From: Haliotis cracherodii
Lineage: Eukaryota
Direction: 5' to 3'
Assembly: GCF_022045235.1 (NCBI RefSeq)
Contig: NW_027266286.1
Coordinates: 68,696,001-68,760,000 of the forward strand
DNA length: 64,000 bases
In this document: positions 6,266 to 63,969 of the stretch, piece by piece
Layout: each line of letters opens with the position of its first letter
How positions within the stretch are numbered: the first letter of the stretch is position 1
Notes under the pieces: model-generated
Databases searched by the model: none
What the model was told of the DNA's origin: nothing
The model's input: the letters and a program-made list of their open reading frames with translations, nothing else
Program-made: the position numbers and the translations under genes

Positions 6266-6530
6266 GACCCGTGAAGATCCGGGGTAGAATAGGTCTTCAG
6301 CAACCCATGCTTGCAGTAAAAGGTGACTATGCTTGACGTAATAGGCGACTAACGGGATCGGGTGGTCAGGCTCGTTGACTTGGTTGATGGAAGTCATCGT
6401 ATCCCAATTGCGTGGATCGATGCTCATGATGTCAATCACTGGATTTTATAGTCCTGACTCCTTTATTTACAGACCGCCATCATATAGCTGGAATGTTGAT
6501 GAGTGCGGCTTTACAAAACAAACAACCAAT
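6266..6530 (+). mobile_element. Retroposon family B, full length (no tRNA head, structured 5' end, (AAAC)n tail)
   Basis: Starts gacccgtgaagatccggggtagaataggtcttcagcaaccc; ends tagctggaat.ttg.tgagtgcggc + aaac repeats; at least 15 related copies or fragments in the window. Confidence 0.9.
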
Positions 6531-6552
6531 CTAACCCGGATCTTCACGGGTC

Positions 6553-7573: not shown

Positions 7574-7840
7574 GCCCTGTGAAGACCCGGGGTAGAATAA
7601 ATCTTCAGCAACCCATGCTTACCGTAAATGGCGACTACGCTTGTCGTAAGAGGCGAATAACGGGATCGGCTGGTCAGGCTCGCTGACTTGGTTTGATGCA
7701 TGTCATCGATCCCAATTGCTTGGATCGACGCTCATGATGTCAATCACTGGATCGTCTGGTCCAGATTCGATTATTTACAGACCGCCGTCATATAGCTGGA
7801 ATATTGCTGAGTGCGGCGTTAAACAATAAACAAACAACCA
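7574..7840 (+). mobile_element. Retroposon family B, full length
   Basis: Family consensus end to end; 11-bp TSD agattagacta (7563-7573 / 7841-7851), as expected of retrotransposition. Confidence 0.92.
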
Positions 7841-9329
7841 AGATTAGACTAAACAGACTCTCTACAGTAACAAAAACCGAAATTTTACCCAATATCAAAA
7901 CCCGATAACTTTTTCTCCCCTCCCCCTCCCGCCTCCCTCCAAAAGAAGCAAAAAACAATCAGTGGCAATATGGCGTTAACAAGGTCCACCCGGTAGTGCC
8001 AAATTTGATATTTTGGAGGAAAAGTCCTCTTGGCGTTCCCGGGACCAATAAGGACACGGTTTACTGACACGGAATTGTTCTCTCCCGGTACCAGGACCAG
8101 AATTCTCGATTTATGAGTTCGGCACCCCCGGGACTATCCGAAATTCTGATTTGCTTTCCAGACCCATAACCGTCACCATAGCGGTGGGGTGTGTTGTCAT
8201 CACTATTGTGACGTCATTGCACATCACGTTAACAATGGTATTACTTTACGTCAACAATGATGTTGGATTCGTGAATAATTTATATTTTTGTAAACCTCTA
8301 AACGAACATATGATCAGAAAATGTCAGGTACAGCGACAGAGGTTTGAGACAACACAGTGTAGATACCGGGGTTTCATGTTCATCCGTAGTTGAAGAGGGG
8401 CTTGCTCGACCATGCACATCAAAGGGTCCATGTTTATGATCATCTCATAAATATCCATTGATATGTACAGACAGCTGTCACGATACACGCATATTGTTGT
8501 TTTTAATATCATCAAAGCATATGCCGTTTTCAAAAAACGTCGTAAATATTATTGGACTCAACGGACTTATAATGTTTTTCCTGTTTTCGATTGCTATCAT
8601 TATGGGTCTATAAAAGTTTTCTCATAGTTCTGATAAAGAAAATTAAGAGGAAATTTGTCATCTGTTGTCATAAAAAGATTGAACACGTCAAATTTGTAAA
8701 TGTTTTATGGCTCAGGTTTTGCCCTTGAAATGGAAAAACCTTTTGATCTGTGGTAGAGCGAAGTTGTAAACAGGTTTCATCAGTATTTGAGGAGTGTGAT
8801 ACTGGTTTATCCTAAGTTTCGCTTTATGTTTAATATCATGTGACTACTTGTTGCTCGTACTACTTGCGGTTTAGGTTTTTAATTGAAATAATAATTATGA
8901 AAAAACGAAATTTAAAAAAAGTAAGTTTGCTTTTTAGATACGCACCAAACAGCTGATGTATCAACTCAACTCTATTCCCCAAGTACGTCCTTGTATCTGC
9001 AATATTAATATGTAGGAATTAATCCGATTTTTAAATAGACACGCCTGTACTTGTTTTAGTGATCAGCCGTTTCAGAAGTGTCGATTCAAATTAGAATGAC
9101 CATATCAATTGCTGAGTCAACATATTTTCAGTGAAAAAATATCAATTTGGATTTAACTCTTCGAGTAATTCAAAAAGAGCAGAAGATTCCTTCAATACGT
9201 GTTTGCCATTTCACCATATTTTCCATGTCTTAAAAATATATTCCAGAATATTTCACTATTTGATAGTGATTCGTGAATATTCGCTTTGGATAGAGTCGGA
9301 ATCATACAACGGTTTGAGCGGAGATTCCT

Positions 9330-12375: not shown

Positions 12376-12565
12376 TAGACTAACATCTAGTCTCTGAAAT
12401 CTTATATTACACAATATCCTTCTTGACTCTAAAAATAATAAAAAATTCCCTATGCTGATTGTGGAATAGAGCTAGCTTGATCTGGCTAGACTTGCTGTTG
12501 TATGCATTTCTAGATTATTATGTTTTCATAAAATAAATATATTCCACGGTCATGGTGCAGGACTA
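12376..12565 (+). mobile_element. TAG...CTA non-autonomous DNA transposon (AcademH-like), subfamily E2
   Basis: tagactaacatctagtctctgaaat...gacta; imperfect 9-bp TSD acaaacctt / acaaaacat; homologous to 24418-24601. Confidence 0.7.
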
Positions 12566-14485: not shown

Positions 14486-14593
14486 ACTAGGATTAAAACA
14501 TTATTTTACCTCACATCAGCATTTGTCAGCCTCATGGGAGTCTACTCTGCCCTAAATTTGGTTCGAAATTACAAGTATAAACATAGCTCAGAC

Positions 14594-14615
14594 CAAAGAC
14601 GTATATACGTCCGTG
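14594..14615. mobile_element. 22-bp palindromic micro-insertion with 7-bp TSD (P-element-type remnant)
   Basis: caaagacgtatatacgtccgtg flanked by ctcagac on both sides; CA..TG termini. Confidence 0.5.
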
Positions 14616-15045
14616 CTCAGACTCTGAAGCTAAGGTGAAGAGGTGTTGGACATTGATGACATCATATTATGCATTGGTACGCATCTGTTCTGTAGCCATG
14701 GTAACGCTGCCGTAGCTAATCTCTTCTCAACTTACAGCAAATCAGATGTTTAAACCTTGTTACGTGGATACGATGGCCACGAGCCGTAACACCTGGTTAC
14801 GTTGAGCGTGGCGTAATGCGTTACGTTGTGTTACTGCGCCCACGTAATACTTATACAAAACGTGAGTTATCGCCCTTGTGGTGAGTTAACAGAACTACAA
14901 AAAAGTGGTAACCGTTCTCCAAGTTCTGGTCATAACCAATTTGTGGTTGGGGGTGCAATGTATGTCGTACAAGCGAGGATAGGTAGCATTGTTGTAAGAA
15001 ATGGTTACAAATTATTTCATTGCAGTGTAAGAAATGTTGTGTGGT

Positions 15046-25519: not shown

Positions 25520-26370
25520 AATACACATATACATATACATGATATGTACACGTCATACATATGTTTCATATACACATGTCACACATACAGTTCATACATA
25601 TAAATCATGTACACATACATTTACATAACATACACACGTCATACATATATATCATATATACACTTCATACATATATATCATATATACGCTTCATACATAA
25701 ATATCATATATACACTTCATACATATATATCATATACACGTCATACATATATATCATATACACACTTCATACATATATATCATATACACGTCATACATAA
25801 ATATCATATATACACTTCATTCATATATATCATATAAACACTTCATACATATATATCATACATACACTTCATACATATATATCAAATATACGCTTCATAC
25901 ATTTATATCATATAAACACGGCATACATATATATCATATATACACTTCATACATATATATCAAATATACACTTCATACATATGTATCATGTAAACACTTC
26001 ACACATATATATCATATACACACTTCATACATATATATCATATACACGTCATATATATATATCATATAAACACGGCACACATATATATCATATATACACT
26101 TCATACATATATATCATATAAACACGGCATACATATATATCAAATATACACTTCATACATATATATCATATAAACACGGCATACATATATATCATATATA
26201 CACTTCATACATATATATCAAATATACACTTCATACATATATATCATATAAACACTTCACACATATATATCATATACACACTTCATACATATATATCATA
26301 TAAACACTTCACACATATATATCATATACACACTTCACACATATATATCATATACACACTTCATACATAT
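25520..26370. repeat. AT-rich 21-23-bp minisatellite (cacttcatacatatatatcatata-like)
   Basis: Direct reading. Confidence 0.95.
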
Positions 26371-26394
26371 ACTGCATGTATGCATGGCATGAAC

Positions 26395-26810
26395 ACATGT
26401 CATACATACAGTTCATACCTACATGTCATACATGGGGGTCGTAATACAGTTCATACATACAGTTCATACCTACATGTCATACATGGGGGTCGTAATACAG
26501 TTCATACATACAGTTCATACATACATGTCATACATGGGGGTCGTAATACAGTTCATACATACAGTTCATACATACATGTCATACATGGGGGTCGTAATAC
26601 AGTTCATACATACAGTTCATACATACAGGTCATACATGGGGGTCATAATACAGTTCATACATACAGTTCATACATACAGTTCATACATACATGTCATACA
26701 TGGGGGTCGTAATACAGTTCATACATACAGTTCATACATACAGTTCATACTTACATGTCATGCATACAGTTCATACTTACACGTCATGCATACAGTTCAT
26801 ACATACAAAC
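26395..26810. repeat. 51-bp minisatellite built on 13-bp catacatacagtt subunits
   Basis: catggggg anchors at 26431, 26482, 26533, 26584, 26635, 26699. Confidence 0.95.
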
Positions 26811-29476: not shown

Positions 29477-29746
29477 CACCCGTGAAGATCCGGAATAGAA
29501 TTGGTCTTCAGCAACCCATGCTTGCCGTGAAAGGGGACTATGCTTGTCGTAAGAGGCATCTCACGGAATAAGGTGGTCAGGCACGCTGACGTGGTTGATG
29601 CATGTCATCATATCCCAATTGCGTGGATCGATGCTAATGACGTCAATCACTGGATTGTCTGGTCCAAACTCGATTATGAACAGATCGCCGTCGTGTAGCT
29701 GCAATATTGCCGAGTGCGGCGTTAAACAACTAACAAGCAAACAAAC
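29477..29746 (+). mobile_element. Retroposon family B, full length
   Basis: Family consensus from acccgtgaagatccgg to the aaac tail. Confidence 0.9.
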
Positions 29747-29761
29747 TGAAGTAACTGAAAT

Positions 29762-29793
29762 CAGAGACCATATAATCTATTATATGGTCTCTG
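29762..29793. mobile_element. 32-bp palindrome with perfect 7-bp TSD (P-element-type footprint)
   Basis: cagagaccatataat-ct-attatatggtctctg flanked by ctgaaat on both sides. Confidence 0.75.
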
Positions 29794-30825
29794 CTGAAAT
29801 ACGTATCAAAGCTACGTCAGCCGAAAGTCCCTCACTCACTCACAGACACCTTTTAGTACACACTTGCAGTTGTTCTATAGTAAAACGCCACCCCATTAAT
29901 TATGATATCCATGCACCTGCGCAGGTTTTCACAAAAAGGTTTAACCTATTTCACTAACAACCAGGAAGGACACAGATATACGACATTTAACAGCGACAAA
30001 CATCGTCAACTTTATCCCGCTGCAGCCGTCAAATACATCGCCTGAGGATCCCCCACTTAGATGTAGATAACTCACAAAGGGATGCTCGTTCTGTAGGTTC
30101 AGCACGTATTCACAGCAGCTGGTGGCTTACCTACAAATACAGAAGTCACTAGATGTTACAACCACACCATGAAACCTTCTCAATCAGCTACCGGCAACAT
30201 TTCTCGCCTGAAGCATGATGGCTGGTGACAAGTTGGTCTATCAAATGTAATTATCCCACACAAATTGTTCACAGGTGGCGTAGCAATTTTCGAATCATAC
30301 GCGGTAGTCTACTTTGAGTAAATCGCTTTACTATATCGTACCTGTTGACCGTTGTGTGATGTATGGGCGTCAGTCACGCGGACATTTAGTGTTAAATCAT
30401 ATGTTGATGCTAGGGCGACAGATTCTGTCTTGCGATTTACATGACAAGACACGACAAGAATTTATCACAATTTTATATGCGAAAAGTTCGTGGACAGATT
30501 TCTCTTCATACTAAACATTCGGTGGAATTGTTCAAATTATTATATTTGATATTTGATGCTTGTTTTTGAATAACGGTCAGACTAATGGTAGTGTTTCATG
30601 ATCCGGAAGTTCAGGACAAAGGAAGGTATGTGGACGGTTGGATAATAATAATTCACAGTTCTAATGAAACTAATCATGTAACGGTTAATACTTCTGGATA
30701 ATAAAATCACTCACTCACTCACTCACTCACTCACACTCCTCCACTGAAGCAGTTTCTACACTGGGGATACAGACAGTGTGTTCACCAGGGAGCGTTACTG
30801 TCTCCTTCATCATTTACACATTCAG

Positions 30826-33455: not shown

Positions 33456-34080
33456 TAAGTGTAGGACCAAATTGACACCATTTCGATGACAACCGGGGCA
33501 TTGTGCTGACAAATTTAGCACCAAAATTGGGACGAGTCTGGGGTTCGAACCCCGACCCACGGATGGTGGTCATTAGGGGACACTTTGCACAACACCTTGT
33601 AGCTTCCAGACCACTGGGCCAAGATTTACTCCGAGGCTCGTGGAAAAGTTGCTACTGCTCCTGTTTTCTTATAACTGACCAAAGTGGTCACAAAGAGCGA
33701 TTAGGGGGTTGTTGAAGTTCAACGGCGGCTTTTAGAAATGTCTTGTCATAAAATTGATTGTCAGATTTGCTGAGGATGGTGTAAATAAGTGTAAATCAAG
33801 TTTATTTTCTGCAAACACCATCGTCATGCTTGCCTTAAACAACTTCATATGAATAATAATCTGGGGTCAGGAGTTTAGCTGGGGCGACTCAACCCATGTA
33901 GGATGCCGAAGAAGCAATGTATACCTCATACTAAATTACATGAATTTCGGTCGCAATAATGTTGTTATATGTTTCGGTCATTTCGTCAGCGGTATTCCTA
34001 CAATGATCCATGTGATAAGAGTGTGTTAGCTCTTACATGTGCTGAATATGTGAACGAGAGTGTGTATGTGTCATAACGAG

Positions 34081-34960
34081 TGTGTATAGAGTCAGAACGA
34101 GAGGGTACTGTGTCAGAACGAGAGGGTATAGTGTCAGAACGAGAGGGTATAGTGTCAGAACGAGAGGGTACACTGTCAGAACGAGAGGGTATAGTGTCAG
34201 AACGAGAGGGTACAGTGTCAGAACGAGAGGGTATAGTTTCAGAACGAGAGGGTATAGTGTCAGAACGAGAGGGTATAGTGTCAGAACGATAGGGTATAGT
34301 GTCAGAACGAGAGAGTACAATGTCAGAACGAGAGGGTACAGTGTCAGAACGAGAAGGTATAGTGTCAGAACGAGAGGGTATAGTGTCAGAACGAGAGGGT
34401 ATAGTGTCAGAACGAGAGAGTATAGTGTCAGAACGAGAGGGTACAGTGTTAGAACGAGAGGGTATAGTGTCAGAACTAGAAGTTATAGTGTCAGAACGAG
34501 AGAGTACAATGTCAGAACGAGAGGGTACAATGTCAGAACGAGAGAGTACAATGTCAGAACGAGAGGGTATAGTGTCAGACCTAGAAGGTATAGAGTCAGA
34601 ACGAGAGGGTATAGTGTCAGAACGAGAGGGTATAGTGTCAGAACGAGAGAGTATAGTGTCAGAACGAGAGGGTACAGTGTTAGAACGAGAGGGTATAGTG
34701 TCAGAACTAGAAGTTATAGTGTCAGAACGAGAGAGTACAATGTCAGAACGAGAGGGTACAATGTCAGAACGAGAGAGTACAATGTCAGAACGAGAGGGTA
34801 CAATGTCAGAACGAGAGGGTACAGTGTCAAAACGAGAGAGTACAATGTCAGAACGAGAGGATACAATGTCAGAACGAGTGAGTACAATGTCAGAACGAGA
34901 GGGTACAATGTCAGAACGAGAGGTTATAGTGTCAGAACTAGAAGGTATAGAGTCAGAACG
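34081..34960. repeat. 21-bp minisatellite (gtcagaacgagagggtatagt), about 42 units
   Basis: Exact 21-bp period; the unit lacks stops in several frames, producing the 299-aa and 267-aa ORFs. Confidence 0.97.
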
Positions 34961-37734
34961 GGATCACATGTGTCAGAATGATAAGCCATGTGTGTCAATT
35001 GAGAAGACGTTAGGAACAATGAGAAGACGTATGTCTCAGAATGAGAAGACGCGAGGCAGAATGAGACGACATGTGTGTCAGAATGGGAATCATTCATATT
35101 GACTTTTCCAACGCAATATCATAATCAAAATGAATAATTACTTTAAAAAGTACATGAAGAACTTCTCTTCAGCACGTTGTCGATCTTTATCTCATTTACT
35201 ATTCGAAAACATGAATGTAATGGTAATTGGTTCGACATTGTACAGAACACCACTTTGATTCAACTACCATATAACATATGTGATGTGAGATGTGAATGTT
35301 TGAAAATGCATATGTTCCAGAACATACTGAGAAACAAATCTGAATCAGATGTAAAACACAAAAAAAACCGTTTGACATGATGGATGTCCCGGAAGCTATG
35401 TGTTGTAAAAAAATAAATTACTCTGCATTGCAATGGTATGTCATCTTTGTCAAAATCCAATCAAATCCAGGTCTGGTTTTGGCAATATGCGATAACCCAA
35501 ATTACCACCAAATGACGCTTCCTACGTCTAAGTGCGTGCTTCTGTGACATGAAGTTCCTCTTTATTGTCTTGAAAGTTTCATTACATCAGTTTTAACTCC
35601 TGAGCATCTTGTGTGAAACCTAACCACAACTTATCTGATCAATGTGAACAGTTGTCGAATGCGTCGTCTAACACCCGAACACAACCACAGAGACAGCATA
35701 TGTCACATTGAACATTGACCCAAGTTCCATTACATACAAATACCTCCTTTACAATTAGTGTCAGACGAGGCACTTGTTGTGCCACCATGGACATTCCACT
35801 CACCAGCCATCTGTCAAAATCCCCTCTTTGAGACATCCGATAACCCACTGACAACCTAATCCTACAATTTCAACAGTAATGCTATGCACGACCCAAATTA
35901 ACCCTCCTCTCAAATTATAACTATTTACCTTATCAGTGCATCGGACTATCCTAAGGATACATTTAGGCGTTGTAGGGGACTATTACCATCTTATGACGTA
36001 ACGAAACGTTATCAATTAGCGCCCCCTTGTGGCTGACAAGTCTGGCACGAAGGTCAATGATTTTTGCAGAAGACTTACCTCCCTTAAGGACACTGCCCCC
36101 TGGATTGGTGACGTAATAATGAGGGTAAGGGAACGCTGAGGGGTAGTAAAACAGTCGGGGTTATACTCACATGACGTTAATGCCTTGACGTATCCCTCTT
36201 GAGAGGGCATAAGTAGTGTACTTAGCTGACTTAGGTATTTGTAAATACTAGGATTACCGTTATTTCAGCTACTGACGTTTTATTTGGTCTGTTGGAGGAG
36301 GTTTTGGCAACTGTACATTAGGAGTTGATTGACAGGTGTTTATTGTCTTGTTACCGATTTGTGAATTAGCTTGTCCGTGTCCCCATAAAGAAATTGGTCC
36401 ATTTTATTGGAACGTGTTTGACAAATGTTTCTGGTTTACAGGACAATGAATAATTTATGGCCTCCAAATGAAATGAAGATATATTTATAGAATTGTTTCT
36501 ATTTATTTAAACAAGGTAACAGGTGAATCAACTCGAATGTATTACGTCCACCGAGATTGTAAAATAAAATTTCATTCTTTGTTCAGACTTTCATAAAATC
36601 TAAAGTATTAAAGAAGTTGTTATCCGTAAATTGTGTCTTCTTTGTCATCCGTCAACTTCTAAGTAATGCCTATCAAACAAAACAATTCTTTCATAAAATC
36701 TGTCCAAAGCGGCGTTAAAGCAAACTCACTCACTCATTGACTGTGTGTCGTGTCAAGCCTTATAACAACGACTTCTGACGCCGTCACGGTGATGTACAAA
36801 CAGCTATGACAGAAAGCCTGAGCATCGGTCCCCATCCAAGTCGGTTTTTACGAAAGGTATCAGAGGCTTATTCTGACATGAAACCATATCAAGGTTTATT
36901 TCCTTCAAACACCTGCCGTACATAAACCCAAGAAGGCGAGGTCAGATTCATAAGTTCCTCGTGAGTGATGCATCTTACTGTGCATAGTTACCTCCCTTAG
37001 CCGTGCCAGGATCCGCCGAGCATTTGTTCGAATCCCCGATTCAAACTGATTGTCATCTTTAGTGTGCCCAATAACGTATAGAGATGTACGTATTGTATAT
37101 ACTATATACGTCTTTGGTCTACTCCTTTCTTGTAGGCTTGGGCCTCACAAGTAGTTAGGAATCGATACATTCGTGGGGGAGTATCGTGGTCCGATGGCTA
37201 GGATTAAAAAGACATTTTCTCAGAATATACATGAACAAAATGTATCTTTGTGCTTTTCTCTTGCAATATAATTAAATTGTCCGCTGCACATGATGGGTGT
37301 CCTGTACAAATCGGTCGGCCCATAAACTTCTACGGTAGACGTTAAGACACGAGGAGTTATCGACGTAAAGCCATGTCAGCCATTGGACGGGGTCAAGGTC
37401 AGATATACGAGACGTTTAGGGAATAGAAGGGCCGATATTATACATAGGAAATCAATATCGTGGACTCATATTGATACGTCTCGACATTTGTATGGACAGG
37501 TTAAGCGTTATATTAAATATACATTAGAGATTAAATGTATGTGATAATATTGATACACTGATCTAGAAGATTGAAAAACACGTCATGATCGGTACCAACT
37601 GACCACATCCCGAAGCGACCGCTTGCACGGGTATCTGACCCAAGACTGACCTGTCAGATTGTATGCTCCTTGTAGTCAAATAGTACTCGGAGAGGGAAAG
37701 AAAGTGCGAGAAGAAACATATAGAGAAACAGATA

Positions 37735-50119: not shown

Positions 50120-50726
50120 TATTCCATACTTATAAGCAACACTACTTACTTCTTAGTTCCCGTTTCAACATAGGTTCTATACAAAATTATTCCAAAACAC
50201 TTCTTTCGGCAGATGAGTTGTCCCGAATATGTGACTGGGGTCCTGTCTGCAATATATTTATGAAAGCGCATACCAAGCTACTCGTAACAACAGCGAAAGA
50301 CCAGCCACACCGAGCGTCAGACCTCGTGTCTGCAATTACATAACGCAGATGCTAAGGGAGATAAGAAATGGCGTCATGTGCCTGTGGCATACCACTACAA
50401 ACAAAGCCATCCCATAGGGGTAATTAGCTGGGGTGGGAATGTTGGCTGGTTTTCCCCTGTGTCCCACAGGGCTCGTTTAGGGGGTCGGGCATGTAATGTC
50501 ATTACCTTGACACCTAGATTTACCAGGTAGCAGTTGTCAGCGGATGGAGGCTTCTTTCACGTGGGAGTGAATGTATGTGTACGGTTGGGCGTGCAGCTAG
50601 AAATACTGCCTGGCAGAATAATGCAACTAATCATTTCTCGGCCTGTAATAACTGATCGATCCGTTGACGAGCATTGTCCATTACCCAAAGACACAGCGTA
50701 TATGCAGCGACATCGTTAGTTTTCAA

Positions 50727-50758
50727 CAGAGACCATAAAAACTATTTCATGGTCTCTG
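50727..50758. mobile_element. 32-bp palindrome with 7-bp TSD (second P-element-type footprint)
   Basis: cagagaccataaaaa-ct-atttcatggtctctg flanked by ttttcaa / tttccaa. Confidence 0.65.
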
Positions 50759-50914
50759 TTTCCAATAAGTGAGTGGTTGTTTTAACGTCGCGTGTAGGGC
50801 TTCACCATCATGATCCAGACGGGGAGCACCGGTGAGTGAGTGAGTGAGTGAGTGAGTGAGTGAGTGAGTGTTTTGACGTCGCTTGTAGGGCTTCACCATC
50901 ACTATCAAGACGGG

Positions 50915-61098: not shown

Positions 61099-61164
61099 GA
61101 CTCTATATGTATTATGAAGCGAGAAATGCAATTGATAATGACAGTTTATTCTGACGAACTGGTA

Positions 61165-61626
61165 GGAATTATATTATACATATCTCATTCTTATCACTGA
61201 ATTTACAAGGTGACGACTGCTAGTGACAACGTCGGCATTACATCAAAGACATGCGTTGTCGATTTCATCTGCCCTGAAATAACTGTCGACAGATCAAACC
61301 GACCGCAACACCAATTCAAAATAAACTTTGATAAGACATGTTCACAGTCCAAACTTTGGGCTGCACCGGTGACAAGCTTTACATAACGCTTGATTAACTC
61401 CCTGTTAGTGCCTGTTAACTTATCTGATGTGTTTCATGGGATTAGGTCAATGGTTCTGTAGCGGTCATTTCACGCCTTTCTTATCTCTGGACGGTCAGTT
61501 ATTGGTGTTGGGGTATTACCTGGTGTCAACACGATGATCAATGTTTAGTCCACGCTCACGGAGACGACGTAACAACAGATGCTGCAACTAGTACAAGAAC
61601 CGCGACTGCTACAGGTAGAGCTGCTG

Positions 61627-61686
<60 letters not shown>

Positions 61687-63819
61687 TACTACTTGAGTAC
61701 AAAGAATGTAATCAATTCTCGACTTCTACTTCTGCTGCAACATCTCATGCAAAAACAACTACTGCTGCAACTACTACTACTACTACTACTACCACTACCA
61801 CTACTACTGCAGAACACCGTCATATACATGTATCTGACTGTTGCTGAGTGCGGTGTTAAACAACGACCAAACACACTACCACGATCCCTGCTGCAACAGC
61901 TACTGTTACTACTACCACTACTGTAGACTAACCAAATAACTCCATTTAAATTGAAAAGGAGCCCCAATGGGAACGGAGATTCCGAACCTCATGAACATTT
62001 AGACTTGCTTCACTCACAGCTCTTGCATCACAGAAAGGACTGGGCGGAAGGGAAAATAATACGGCTCAAGGACTGTGAGACAGGCTACCACGACTGCTAC
62101 TTCTCCTTCTACTATTGCTGCTGCTACTACTACTACTACTACTACTACTATTTGTACTACTGCTTCTACTGATATTGCTACTGCTACTGATATTGCTACT
62201 GTCACGGCTACTACTACTACTACCTCTATTGCTACTGTTACGGCTACTACTATTCCTAATGTACATCTACTGCTGCTGCTGTTGTCGATTCTACACATCT
62301 ACTTTGACCAGAATCACTGCAACTACGAATACTTCTACAACAGCACAAGTCATTCTGCTTCCTTCTATGCTTGCGAAATAATTCACACAGTGGCAAATGA
62401 AACGAGTAAAGCTACATTTTGTGTCTCCCTTCTCAACTTGTCAATAATGACGCATTAGAAAGTCATTTCAAGCAAAATTTATTGTAAGTGTAGATGTAGA
62501 TTACCATATAAAAATCATAAAAATAAAAATTACCTCAGATAAAAGCATATGTTGCTACAAAATACGGAAAGAAATGCATCTTAAGACCACATTGTCCTTT
62601 CTCTGTTTCAAAAGTAGAAAAGAATATCTTTAGGATATATAGATGGTTGTCAATTTCACTCTCATTCACACATTAGCACCTTAAGTGGTGTATATTTCAA
62701 AACCACGCTACACATTTCCACGTGTACTTGCTATGAGTGTCAACATCACTTGTCAAATAAAACTGTCACATGTTTATCAAATATTCATTACACTTCAACA
62801 ACTAAGCCACATCTCTGACAAGGTTGGTCAAGCTTCAAATGGCTCGAGGGTCCTTAACGCTGCTAATATCATAAACGAAAAGCTGTCATACTTCAAAATG
62901 TAATAAATTATGTATTCGGAGTATTGTCATATGAGTTATGACAAACAGCTGATCTTTAACCTCATCACGTCGCTAAGCACCTGGCTGATTGTAAAACATG
63001 GGTTGCGGATGCATCTCATAATAGAAATACACGCTTGTTAGATTATCACCAAAGCCTCACTGTCAACTACCCTCTCCCCCTAACGCGCCTTTTTCACGGG
63101 GCTACCGCTTTAATGGTGTGTCTAACACACGCCCATAACAAGTGGTTATATTTGTTAAAATATTATCGACCTTACCCAGCTCATTTCGTTAAACAAATAT
63201 TTAATTAACTATGTTTTCGTGGAACATGGCTCTTATCATTGGCGATAATGGTCCTGTTTTCGATCATGACAGTGCTTTCATAAAAAATGATTATTTCGCC
63301 ATACCTACATACAAATGAGAATGAGGATGACACTGCTTGTAACAGACAAAATTTTTGGATAACCTTATGAACCGTACTAAATTTAACCTCGCCCCGAAAC
63401 CCCACAAAGGTCATACTCTACCGTTCACAATTACGGTCAGTATCTTCCAAACAAGCCATCTTGGGGGACTGGACAACACCAATAACTGACCGTCCAGAGA
63501 TAAGAAAGGCGTGAAATGACCGCTACAAAGCCATTGACCTAATCCCATGAAACACATTAGATAAGTTAACAGGATCTAACAGAGAGTTAATCAAGCGTTA
63601 TGTAAAGCTTGTCACCGGTGCAGCCCAAAGTTTGGACTGTGAACATGTCTTATCAAAGTTTGTTTTAATTTGGTGTTGCGGTCGGTTTGATCTGTCGACA
63701 GTTATTTCAGGGCAGATGAAATCGACAACTCATGTCTTTGATGTAATGCCGATCTTGTCACTAGCAGTCGTCACCTTGTAAATTCAGTGATAAGAATGAG
63801 ATATGTATAATAGAATTCC
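61165..63819. repeat. 346-bp long inverted repeat (61165-61510 / 63474-63819) enclosing ~1.96 kb
   Basis: Arms align as reverse complements with only scattered mismatches; no TSD seen. Confidence 0.93.
61549..62381 (+). pseudogene. Broken Thr/Ala-rich (mucin-like) reading frame or degenerate (ACT)n array
   Basis: Open frame 61551-61846 (HAHGDDVTTDAATSTRTATATGRAAAT19LLLEYKECNQFSTSTSAATSHAKTTTAATT...); further Thr-rich blocks in shifted frames to 62381; family B tail inserted at ~61816-61871. Confidence 0.4.
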
Positions 63820-63969
63820 GTCTATTTCTAAGGAATAAAATGTCGCTAATAAATTTCTTAGGATTAATGTCGTCTAATTTGACGATGGGGAGGGGGGGGG
63901 GGGGTTGTCACAGTCAAACAAGTCAAACACGTAATTTCAACTATGTATCCCGTTATGTAGGTACTGTGT

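Follow-up and report, generated by a model that had tools for sequence, protein, structure and literature searches.

Excision of the P element in Drosophila leaves 17-nt 3' overhangs at the donor site, according to the available sections of PMC2895639 and PMC7776569. The 17-nt stagger counts as a hallmark of fly P according to section 8 of PMC7776569, which also states that the manner of strand cutting is unknown. Galileo, going by the title of PMC3688188, carries a THAP domain. P donor sites closed by end joining are well known from fly experiments, and natural excision rates are hard to measure because most DNA transposon excisions leave unrecognisably small traces. Here we describe short inserts in 64,000 nt of the abalone Haliotis cracherodii (assembly GCF_022045235.1, contig NW_027266286.1, positions 68,696,001 to 68,760,000; this whole stretch is called the window below) and their counterparts across the genome. 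We read them as inherited donor-site scars of the excision of P-superfamily transposons, closed by end joining, and we give this reading a probability of about 0.88. An initial annotation of the window had proposed germline excision scars made by a P-superfamily transposase, and that proposal is supported by the P-type parent elements, the varied junctions and the empty allele reported below.

The main site (Table 1) holds a 32-bp insert made of a stretch from each of the two ends of a terminal inverted repeat (TIR) element, placed between two exact copies of a 7-bp target-site duplication (TSD). The empty allele of this site was found in contigs of runs X2 and X5, which carry the same species label and come from two studies. 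The joint 29754>29794 skips 39 bases, that is 32 + 7, with 7 bases that fit either side, and the shorter side of the joint measures 23 and 31 letters. Since the empty allele is present in X2 and X5, the scar is polymorphic. In runs X7, X11 and X12 the unique contig begins at 29794 or to its right, and no joint was reported. Paralogous empty sites were also sought for 95 scars; seven matches were obtained, and five of them, for scars inside other repeats, are clear, the gap being the scar plus about 7 bp. Next to the main scar lies a dispersed repeat, some 270 nt long and present in very many copies (window 29478-29746; other copies at 6267-6535, 7575-7843 and elsewhere); away from the main site, several scars are situated inside this repeat.

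To count such scars in the 1.18-Gb genome, we used a pattern made of both 10-nt termini of this family (family 1) and a gap of 4-30 nt, corresponding to inserts of 24-50 bp, with the reversed pattern as control. The pattern matched 1,050 loci and the control none; within the window there were 2 matches, compared with 0 in 100 shuffles. In 50 distinct family-1 scars the 7-bp TSD was exact in 31 and one-off in 12 (43/50 with 0-1 mismatch), and no exact duplication of 6, 8 or 9 bp was found among 50 family-1 scars. The target-site consensus is the palindromic GTNWNAC. Rare scars with an 8-bp duplication instead of 7 occur at L149 and L182. Family 2 contributes 253 scars, with an exact 7-bp TSD in 25/30, 27/30 at 0-1 mismatch and one with 8 bp. 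For family 3, which includes the 22-bp insert of the window, 620 terminus matches were found against 71 in the control, and an exact TSD followed 15-43 bp further on at 13 of the 28 distinct loci viewed. Both TSD copies are kept around sequence consisting of TIR only, as expected of a P donor-site footprint.

Dozens of junction types were observed, including joins at microhomology and joins with templated filler. Among the first 50 of the 1,050 family-1 scars, the inserts measured 24-45 bp, with peaks at 27 (n=7), 30 (n=9), 32 (n=7) and 36-38 bp (n=10). The initial annotation had looked for a length spike at about 30-34 bp, and this was not borne out: the lengths are multimodal, with 7/50 at 32 bp and 20/50 at 30-34 bp.

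Some scars have an unusual setting. At G000:C5:37206510-37207654 the family-1b terminus (family 1b is introduced below) recurs at multiples of 47 bp, and a scar with its flank has apparently turned into a tandem repeat unit. At L119 (G000:C1:83356987) a complete scar is immediately preceded by a 17-nt single arm and a TSD identical to its own.

Retained terminal lengths and competing explanations

The two TIR-derived arms of a scar are capped at a fixed depth: TIR position 18 in family 1, and position 17 in family 2 and family 1b. Family 1b begins with the same 13 nt as family 1, and its parents hold an internal GGGAC motif closer to the end by one base (seen in 9 of the first 100 parent ends). 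The initial annotation had expected about 16 nt of each TIR to remain after a 17-nt stagger, a value that does not hold for family 1, where as many as 18 nt remain at each end. Here 418 arms reach position 17 and 24 of them are without the A of position 18 (A18). About 394 arms thus extend to position 18; only 10 (counted with a slightly wider gap) extend to G19. This sharp edge occurs well inside a perfect 30-bp TIR, near its midpoint.

Because many A18 could come from the other arm, we relied on unambiguous scar classes. All 29 family-1 scars in which both arms are long and the linker measures 0-3 nt were classified as 18+18 (n=17), 18+17 (n=7) or other (n=5), and none was 17+17. The 24 simple scars of this class are independent events, since their TSDs and flanks are all distinct. 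In scars whose other arm holds no A, A18 was kept in 24/32. Family 2 has 21 scars with both arms of at least 16 nt; in nine, both arms reach at least 17, and these comprise seven 17+17 joins, two with T18 and no 18+18. The double-long scars of families 1 and 2 differ with a Fisher p of 3e-6. In family 1b, A17 is present in 12/14 arms and G18 in 0/14. Remnants of one-sided repair keep 18 (L038) and 17 (L247). The depth in family 3 is ambiguous, 16-18, because its parents vary at position 17. Taken from the scars, a stagger of 18 nt in family 1 seems quite probable.

In 7/7 ends tested, the best pairing partner of terminal positions 3-7 is an internal stretch that begins at position 19 in family 1 or 18 in the others. 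This stretch begins immediately after the inferred nick (19 after 18; 18 after 17). We hypothesize that the inner nick may sit just before an internal NGGA motif folding back onto terminal positions 3-7. The scars could then have formed as follows. The transposase would make one cut at the very end of the element and another, on the opposite strand, 17 or 18 nt further in, so that the chromosome keeps long 3' overhangs of TIR sequence. Annealing at microhomology, blunt joining or short templated fill-in would give products of 22-45 bp, and one-sided gap repair would give the rarer longer remnants. The sequences suggest that the 3'-terminal A18 could pair with three T of the opposite overhang to give the common 27-, 29- and 32-bp products. 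Less certain are the assignment of an 18-nt cut to family 1 and of a 17-nt cut to the two sister families (1b and 2), and the role of the internal NGGA fold-back in setting the nick.

A number of points weigh against this account. The 17/18-nt cut is deduced from scars, with the longest arm retained taken as the stagger; a longer overhang could therefore be masked by trimming, or simulated by bases added in repair. In family 1 many A18 are ambiguous, as the A could derive from the other arm. A18 is absent from 8/32 scars with a short partner arm, 10 arms run beyond 18, and T18 is found in 2/9 of the family-2 scars with both arms at 17 or more. The fold-back window (positions 3-7) was picked post hoc, after the data had been seen, and motif and protein are inseparable as the cause of the 17/18 difference because the transposases of families 1 and 1b differ. 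Finally, no allele with the full element was seen at a scar site, for one site in 5 runs whose contigs drop rare alleles.

The explanation that fares best among the alternatives also takes the inserts as excision scars, and supposes that all families cut at 17 and that repair supplied the 18th base of family 1, an A which happens to match the parent base. Repair polymerases frequently add A, the extra base is indeed A, and the 8/32 short-partner scars mentioned above stop at 17. Nevertheless, clean 17+17 joins without an added base make up 7/9 in family 2 and 0/29 in family 1, and in family 1b, where the TIR has one base fewer in front of this internal motif, the arms end one base sooner; we consider an added A unlikely. 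Internal deletion independent of the transposase (slippage or cruciform collapse), or gap repair aborted at random, might likewise have left the tips of elements, and the 10 arms that reach 19 (5 of them at least 20, including a 42-mer joined inside the TIR) and the existing remnants of 50-350 bp would fit such a process. However, it does not explain the drop from about 394 to 10 arms inside a perfect 30-bp TIR, nor the shift of this edge by one base between families. As a general account it is very improbable, and only the small number of longer remnants can be explained by it.

That the 32-mer and its kin are self-mobile miniature inverted-repeat transposable elements copied by the P transposase is hardly credible, even though the same simple junctions occur at unrelated sites (the window 32-mer makes up 21 of the first 100 family-1 scars listed with an arm reaching position 17, and 17 identical 36-mer scars all have different TSDs), since there are dozens of junction types of which the recurrent ones are the expected repeats of blunt or 1-2-nt microhomology joins, since the sole recurrent complex junction tested (37 bp, seen three times) lies in flanks 95-99% identical and was thus copied passively, and since the scars are without TIR positions 19-30, which section 8 of PMC7776569 describes as contacted by the fly enzyme. 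The initial annotation had named as what would speak against excision either the lack of longer elements or the identity of all junctions together with evidence that the 32-mer itself transposes; longer elements exist and the junctions vary.

Parent elements and a predicted two-part transposase

Longer elements sharing the scar termini were anticipated by the initial annotation, some of them coding for a P transposase, and both were found. The family-1 terminus extends into a perfect 30-bp TIR in non-autonomous elements of 2.1-2.8 kb and in the 8.2-kb element L064:1148-9314. The non-autonomous copies have an exact 7-bp TSD in 6/7 cases, with 2 mismatches in the remaining copy; L064 measures 8,167 bp and has an exact 7-bp TSD. 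Its frame of 881 amino acids (aa) matches the P-transposase Pfam domains PF21787/21788/21789 and the fly P transposase 6p5a_A (E 1.3e-14), and D303, E531 and eight residues that contact guanosine triphosphate (GTP) align; the eight are those named in section 8 of PMC7776569. The RNase H core, the GTP-binding insertion, the 30-bp TIR and the 7-bp TSD place this parent, as judged from its sequence, in the P superfamily. The GTP-contact residues appear conserved in the L064 transposase, and GTP-dependent cleavage is only predicted. A 35-bp scar is present inside the autonomous family-1 element (L064:8107-8141, also in L066 and L245), carried along in its copies.

In family 2 there are four copies of 7,319 bp, L060-L063 (G000 C8, C23, C67), which are 99.2-99.9% identical, have open frames, including one of 864 aa, and lie between different TSDs. 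These elements are likely recently or still active. Among named proteins the best matches come from Haliotis (98% identity); mussel, oyster, scallop and a hemichordate also have relatives. The transposases of families 1 and 1b are 41-72% identical, depending on the piece compared. Exact matching found 154 parent ends for families 1 and 1b together; for family 2, where one of the two ends was counted, it found 10. Scars outnumber the surviving elements by roughly 10:1 or more, a ratio that is approximate because the counts are exact-match only. The termini of transposase copies L065 and L069 were looked for and not found. A candidate 11-kb element at C1:2724406-2735727 was rejected, as it consists of two unrelated ends.

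The transposase had been called THAP-type in the initial annotation, a label the proteins do not bear out. No THAP domain was detected in 56 frame segments of at least 30 aa from the outer parts of two elements (exons below 30 aa fall outside this scope), none in the 21 of 48 homologues that were rescanned, and none in any of the 48 by precomputed domains. The core ends 65-76 aa past the NQD-x-x-E motif in 27/28 homologues that have the motif, and 26 aa past it in one. The C-terminal domain is not in the same polypeptide as the core and is encoded by a second gene. This second, convergent open reading frame (ORF2) is present in the transposase-bearing copies L060-L068. The convergent gene spans L064:6122-9009 (-) and L062:6338-8710 (-), and in both L062 and L064 an exon with C2H2 fingers lies upstream of ORF2. 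The annotated relatives P0001 and P0002 join the C2H2 exon and ORF2.

ORF2 has at least 758 relatives at E<=0.001, and the best 150 are all shorter than 490 aa. With the ORF2 profile, the best PDB match was the C-terminal chain of P transposase, 6p5a_B (E 3.8e-5). A structural model of ORF2 (predicted local distance difference test, pLDDT, 89) aligned with all 118 residues of 6p5a_B at a root-mean-square deviation of 2.5 and Z 11.4, a value in the range (Z <13) that can reflect a common helical arrangement; the next match had Z 6.9. Foldseek returned no match at E<=0.001 for the whole ORF2 model, ORF2 itself matched no Pfam family when scanned directly, and the P C-terminal Pfam model matched weakly in 8/107 ORF2 relatives. 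Sequence and structure are concordant, and ORF2 is predicted to be a stand-alone C-terminal domain of P transposase. The predicted enzyme would have two parts acting together, a THAP-less catalytic core and a C-terminal-domain protein.

Other inserts and repeats in the window

The positions of all inserts are collected in Table 1.

Table 1. Inserts and flanking duplications in the window
Feature	Positions	Strand	Remarks
Left 7-bp TSD copy, main family-1 footprint	29755..29761	+	exact repeat; single copy in empty allele
32-bp family-1 footprint, near-palindrome	29762..29793	.	14-15 nt of one terminus and 18 nt of the other, 1-nt overlap; commonest junction type
Right 7-bp TSD copy, main family-1 footprint	29794..29800	+	exact repeat CTGAAAT
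Left TSD copy, second footprint	50720..50726	+	1 mismatch to right copy
Older 32-bp footprint, family-1 variant terminus	50727..50758	.	A at position 12; ~2 substitutions
Right TSD copy, second footprint	50759..50765	+	1 mismatch to left copy
Left TSD copy, family-3 footprint	14587..14593	+	exact 7-bp repeat
22-bp family-3 footprint, asymmetric termini	14594..14615	.	joined via 7-8-nt self-complementary TIR stretch; parent-like element L068:1399-8538
Right TSD copy, family-3 footprint	14616..14622	+	exact 7-bp repeat
Possible decayed 48-bp family-3 footprint with filler, weak	37069..37116	.	partner end at 37069 decayed; flanks 4/7

Two loci of the same architecture, each between its own 7-bp repeat, had been described in the initial annotation. 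Both inserts measure 32 bp and have identical 10-nt termini, as described; the repeat around the second carries one mismatch (TTTTCAA/TTTCCAA, 6/7). A parent end with its variant terminus exists at G000:C23:49253576. The related 22-bp case with other termini was confirmed, including its exact repeat. The inverted terminus reported at 37102-37116 is real, its partner and flanks are decayed, and the case is weak because the flanks agree at only 4/7 positions. Apart from small repeats shared with the parents, no remnant of a parent element was found in the 64-kb window.

The window contains other repeats. A motif of about 40-50 nt, a T-rich run followed by a 6-bp hairpin, is found at 12396, 31253, 51845, 53253 (-), 56577 (+) and 1728 (-). 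It is not a scar, has no common coding frame and is perhaps the end of another mobile element. At 61140-63844, inverted arms of 371 nt, 94% complementary, flank internal tandem repeats; this is a separate foldback-type element. Minisatellites lie at 2084-2765, 25529-26803 and 33943-35100, with units of 31, 13/26 and 21 bp.

Comparison with known P systems

In this genome every excision closed by end joining leaves a scar that can be read and assigned to its family, and some scars still segregate; excisions, the repair pathways used and the targets chosen thus become countable in a wild animal. The natural 17 and 18 variants provide a testable rule for the stagger, and with a split P transposase that was probably active until recently, the role of the C-terminal domain could be studied apart from catalysis. 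We see an even chance that a widespread marine-invertebrate P clade combines a two-protein transpososome, a nick set by fold-back (with a one-base TIR change moving it from 17 to 18) and end-joined excision as the usual fate, the approximately 10 scars per element counting germline excisions. In the literature covered, which leaves out Repbase and most subscription journals, no report was found of natural genome-wide P scars, of a variable stagger or of a two-gene P element.

The abalone scars resemble the donor-site products of the D. melanogaster P element, as given in the available part of PMC2895639, in that both TSDs are kept, the arms come from the outer TIR, the junctions are microhomology, blunt or templated, and one-sided synthesis occurs. 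They differ in being natural and inherited, in exceeding 1,300 per genome, in having a 7-bp instead of an 8-bp TSD and in the 18 nt, not 17, kept by family 1. The proposed fold-back recalls the fly P structure, where the terminus re-pairs with an internal motif; the likeness is a general one. With Drosophila P transposase (6P5A) and THAP9, as far as the accessible text of PMC10983969 goes, the abalone proteins share the RNase H core, the GTP-binding insertion, the aligned residues and the fold of the C-terminal domain. Unlike in these proteins, no THAP domain was found with the abalone core, the core ends early, and the C-terminal domain is encoded on a separate, convergent C2H2 gene. The 7-bp TSD and the palindromic target preference (GTNWNAC in abalone) are found also in Galileo and 1360/Hoppel, in the sections of PMC3698922 that were available, whereas the abalone elements have short 30-bp TIRs, a two-gene layout and a place in a marine-invertebrate clade.
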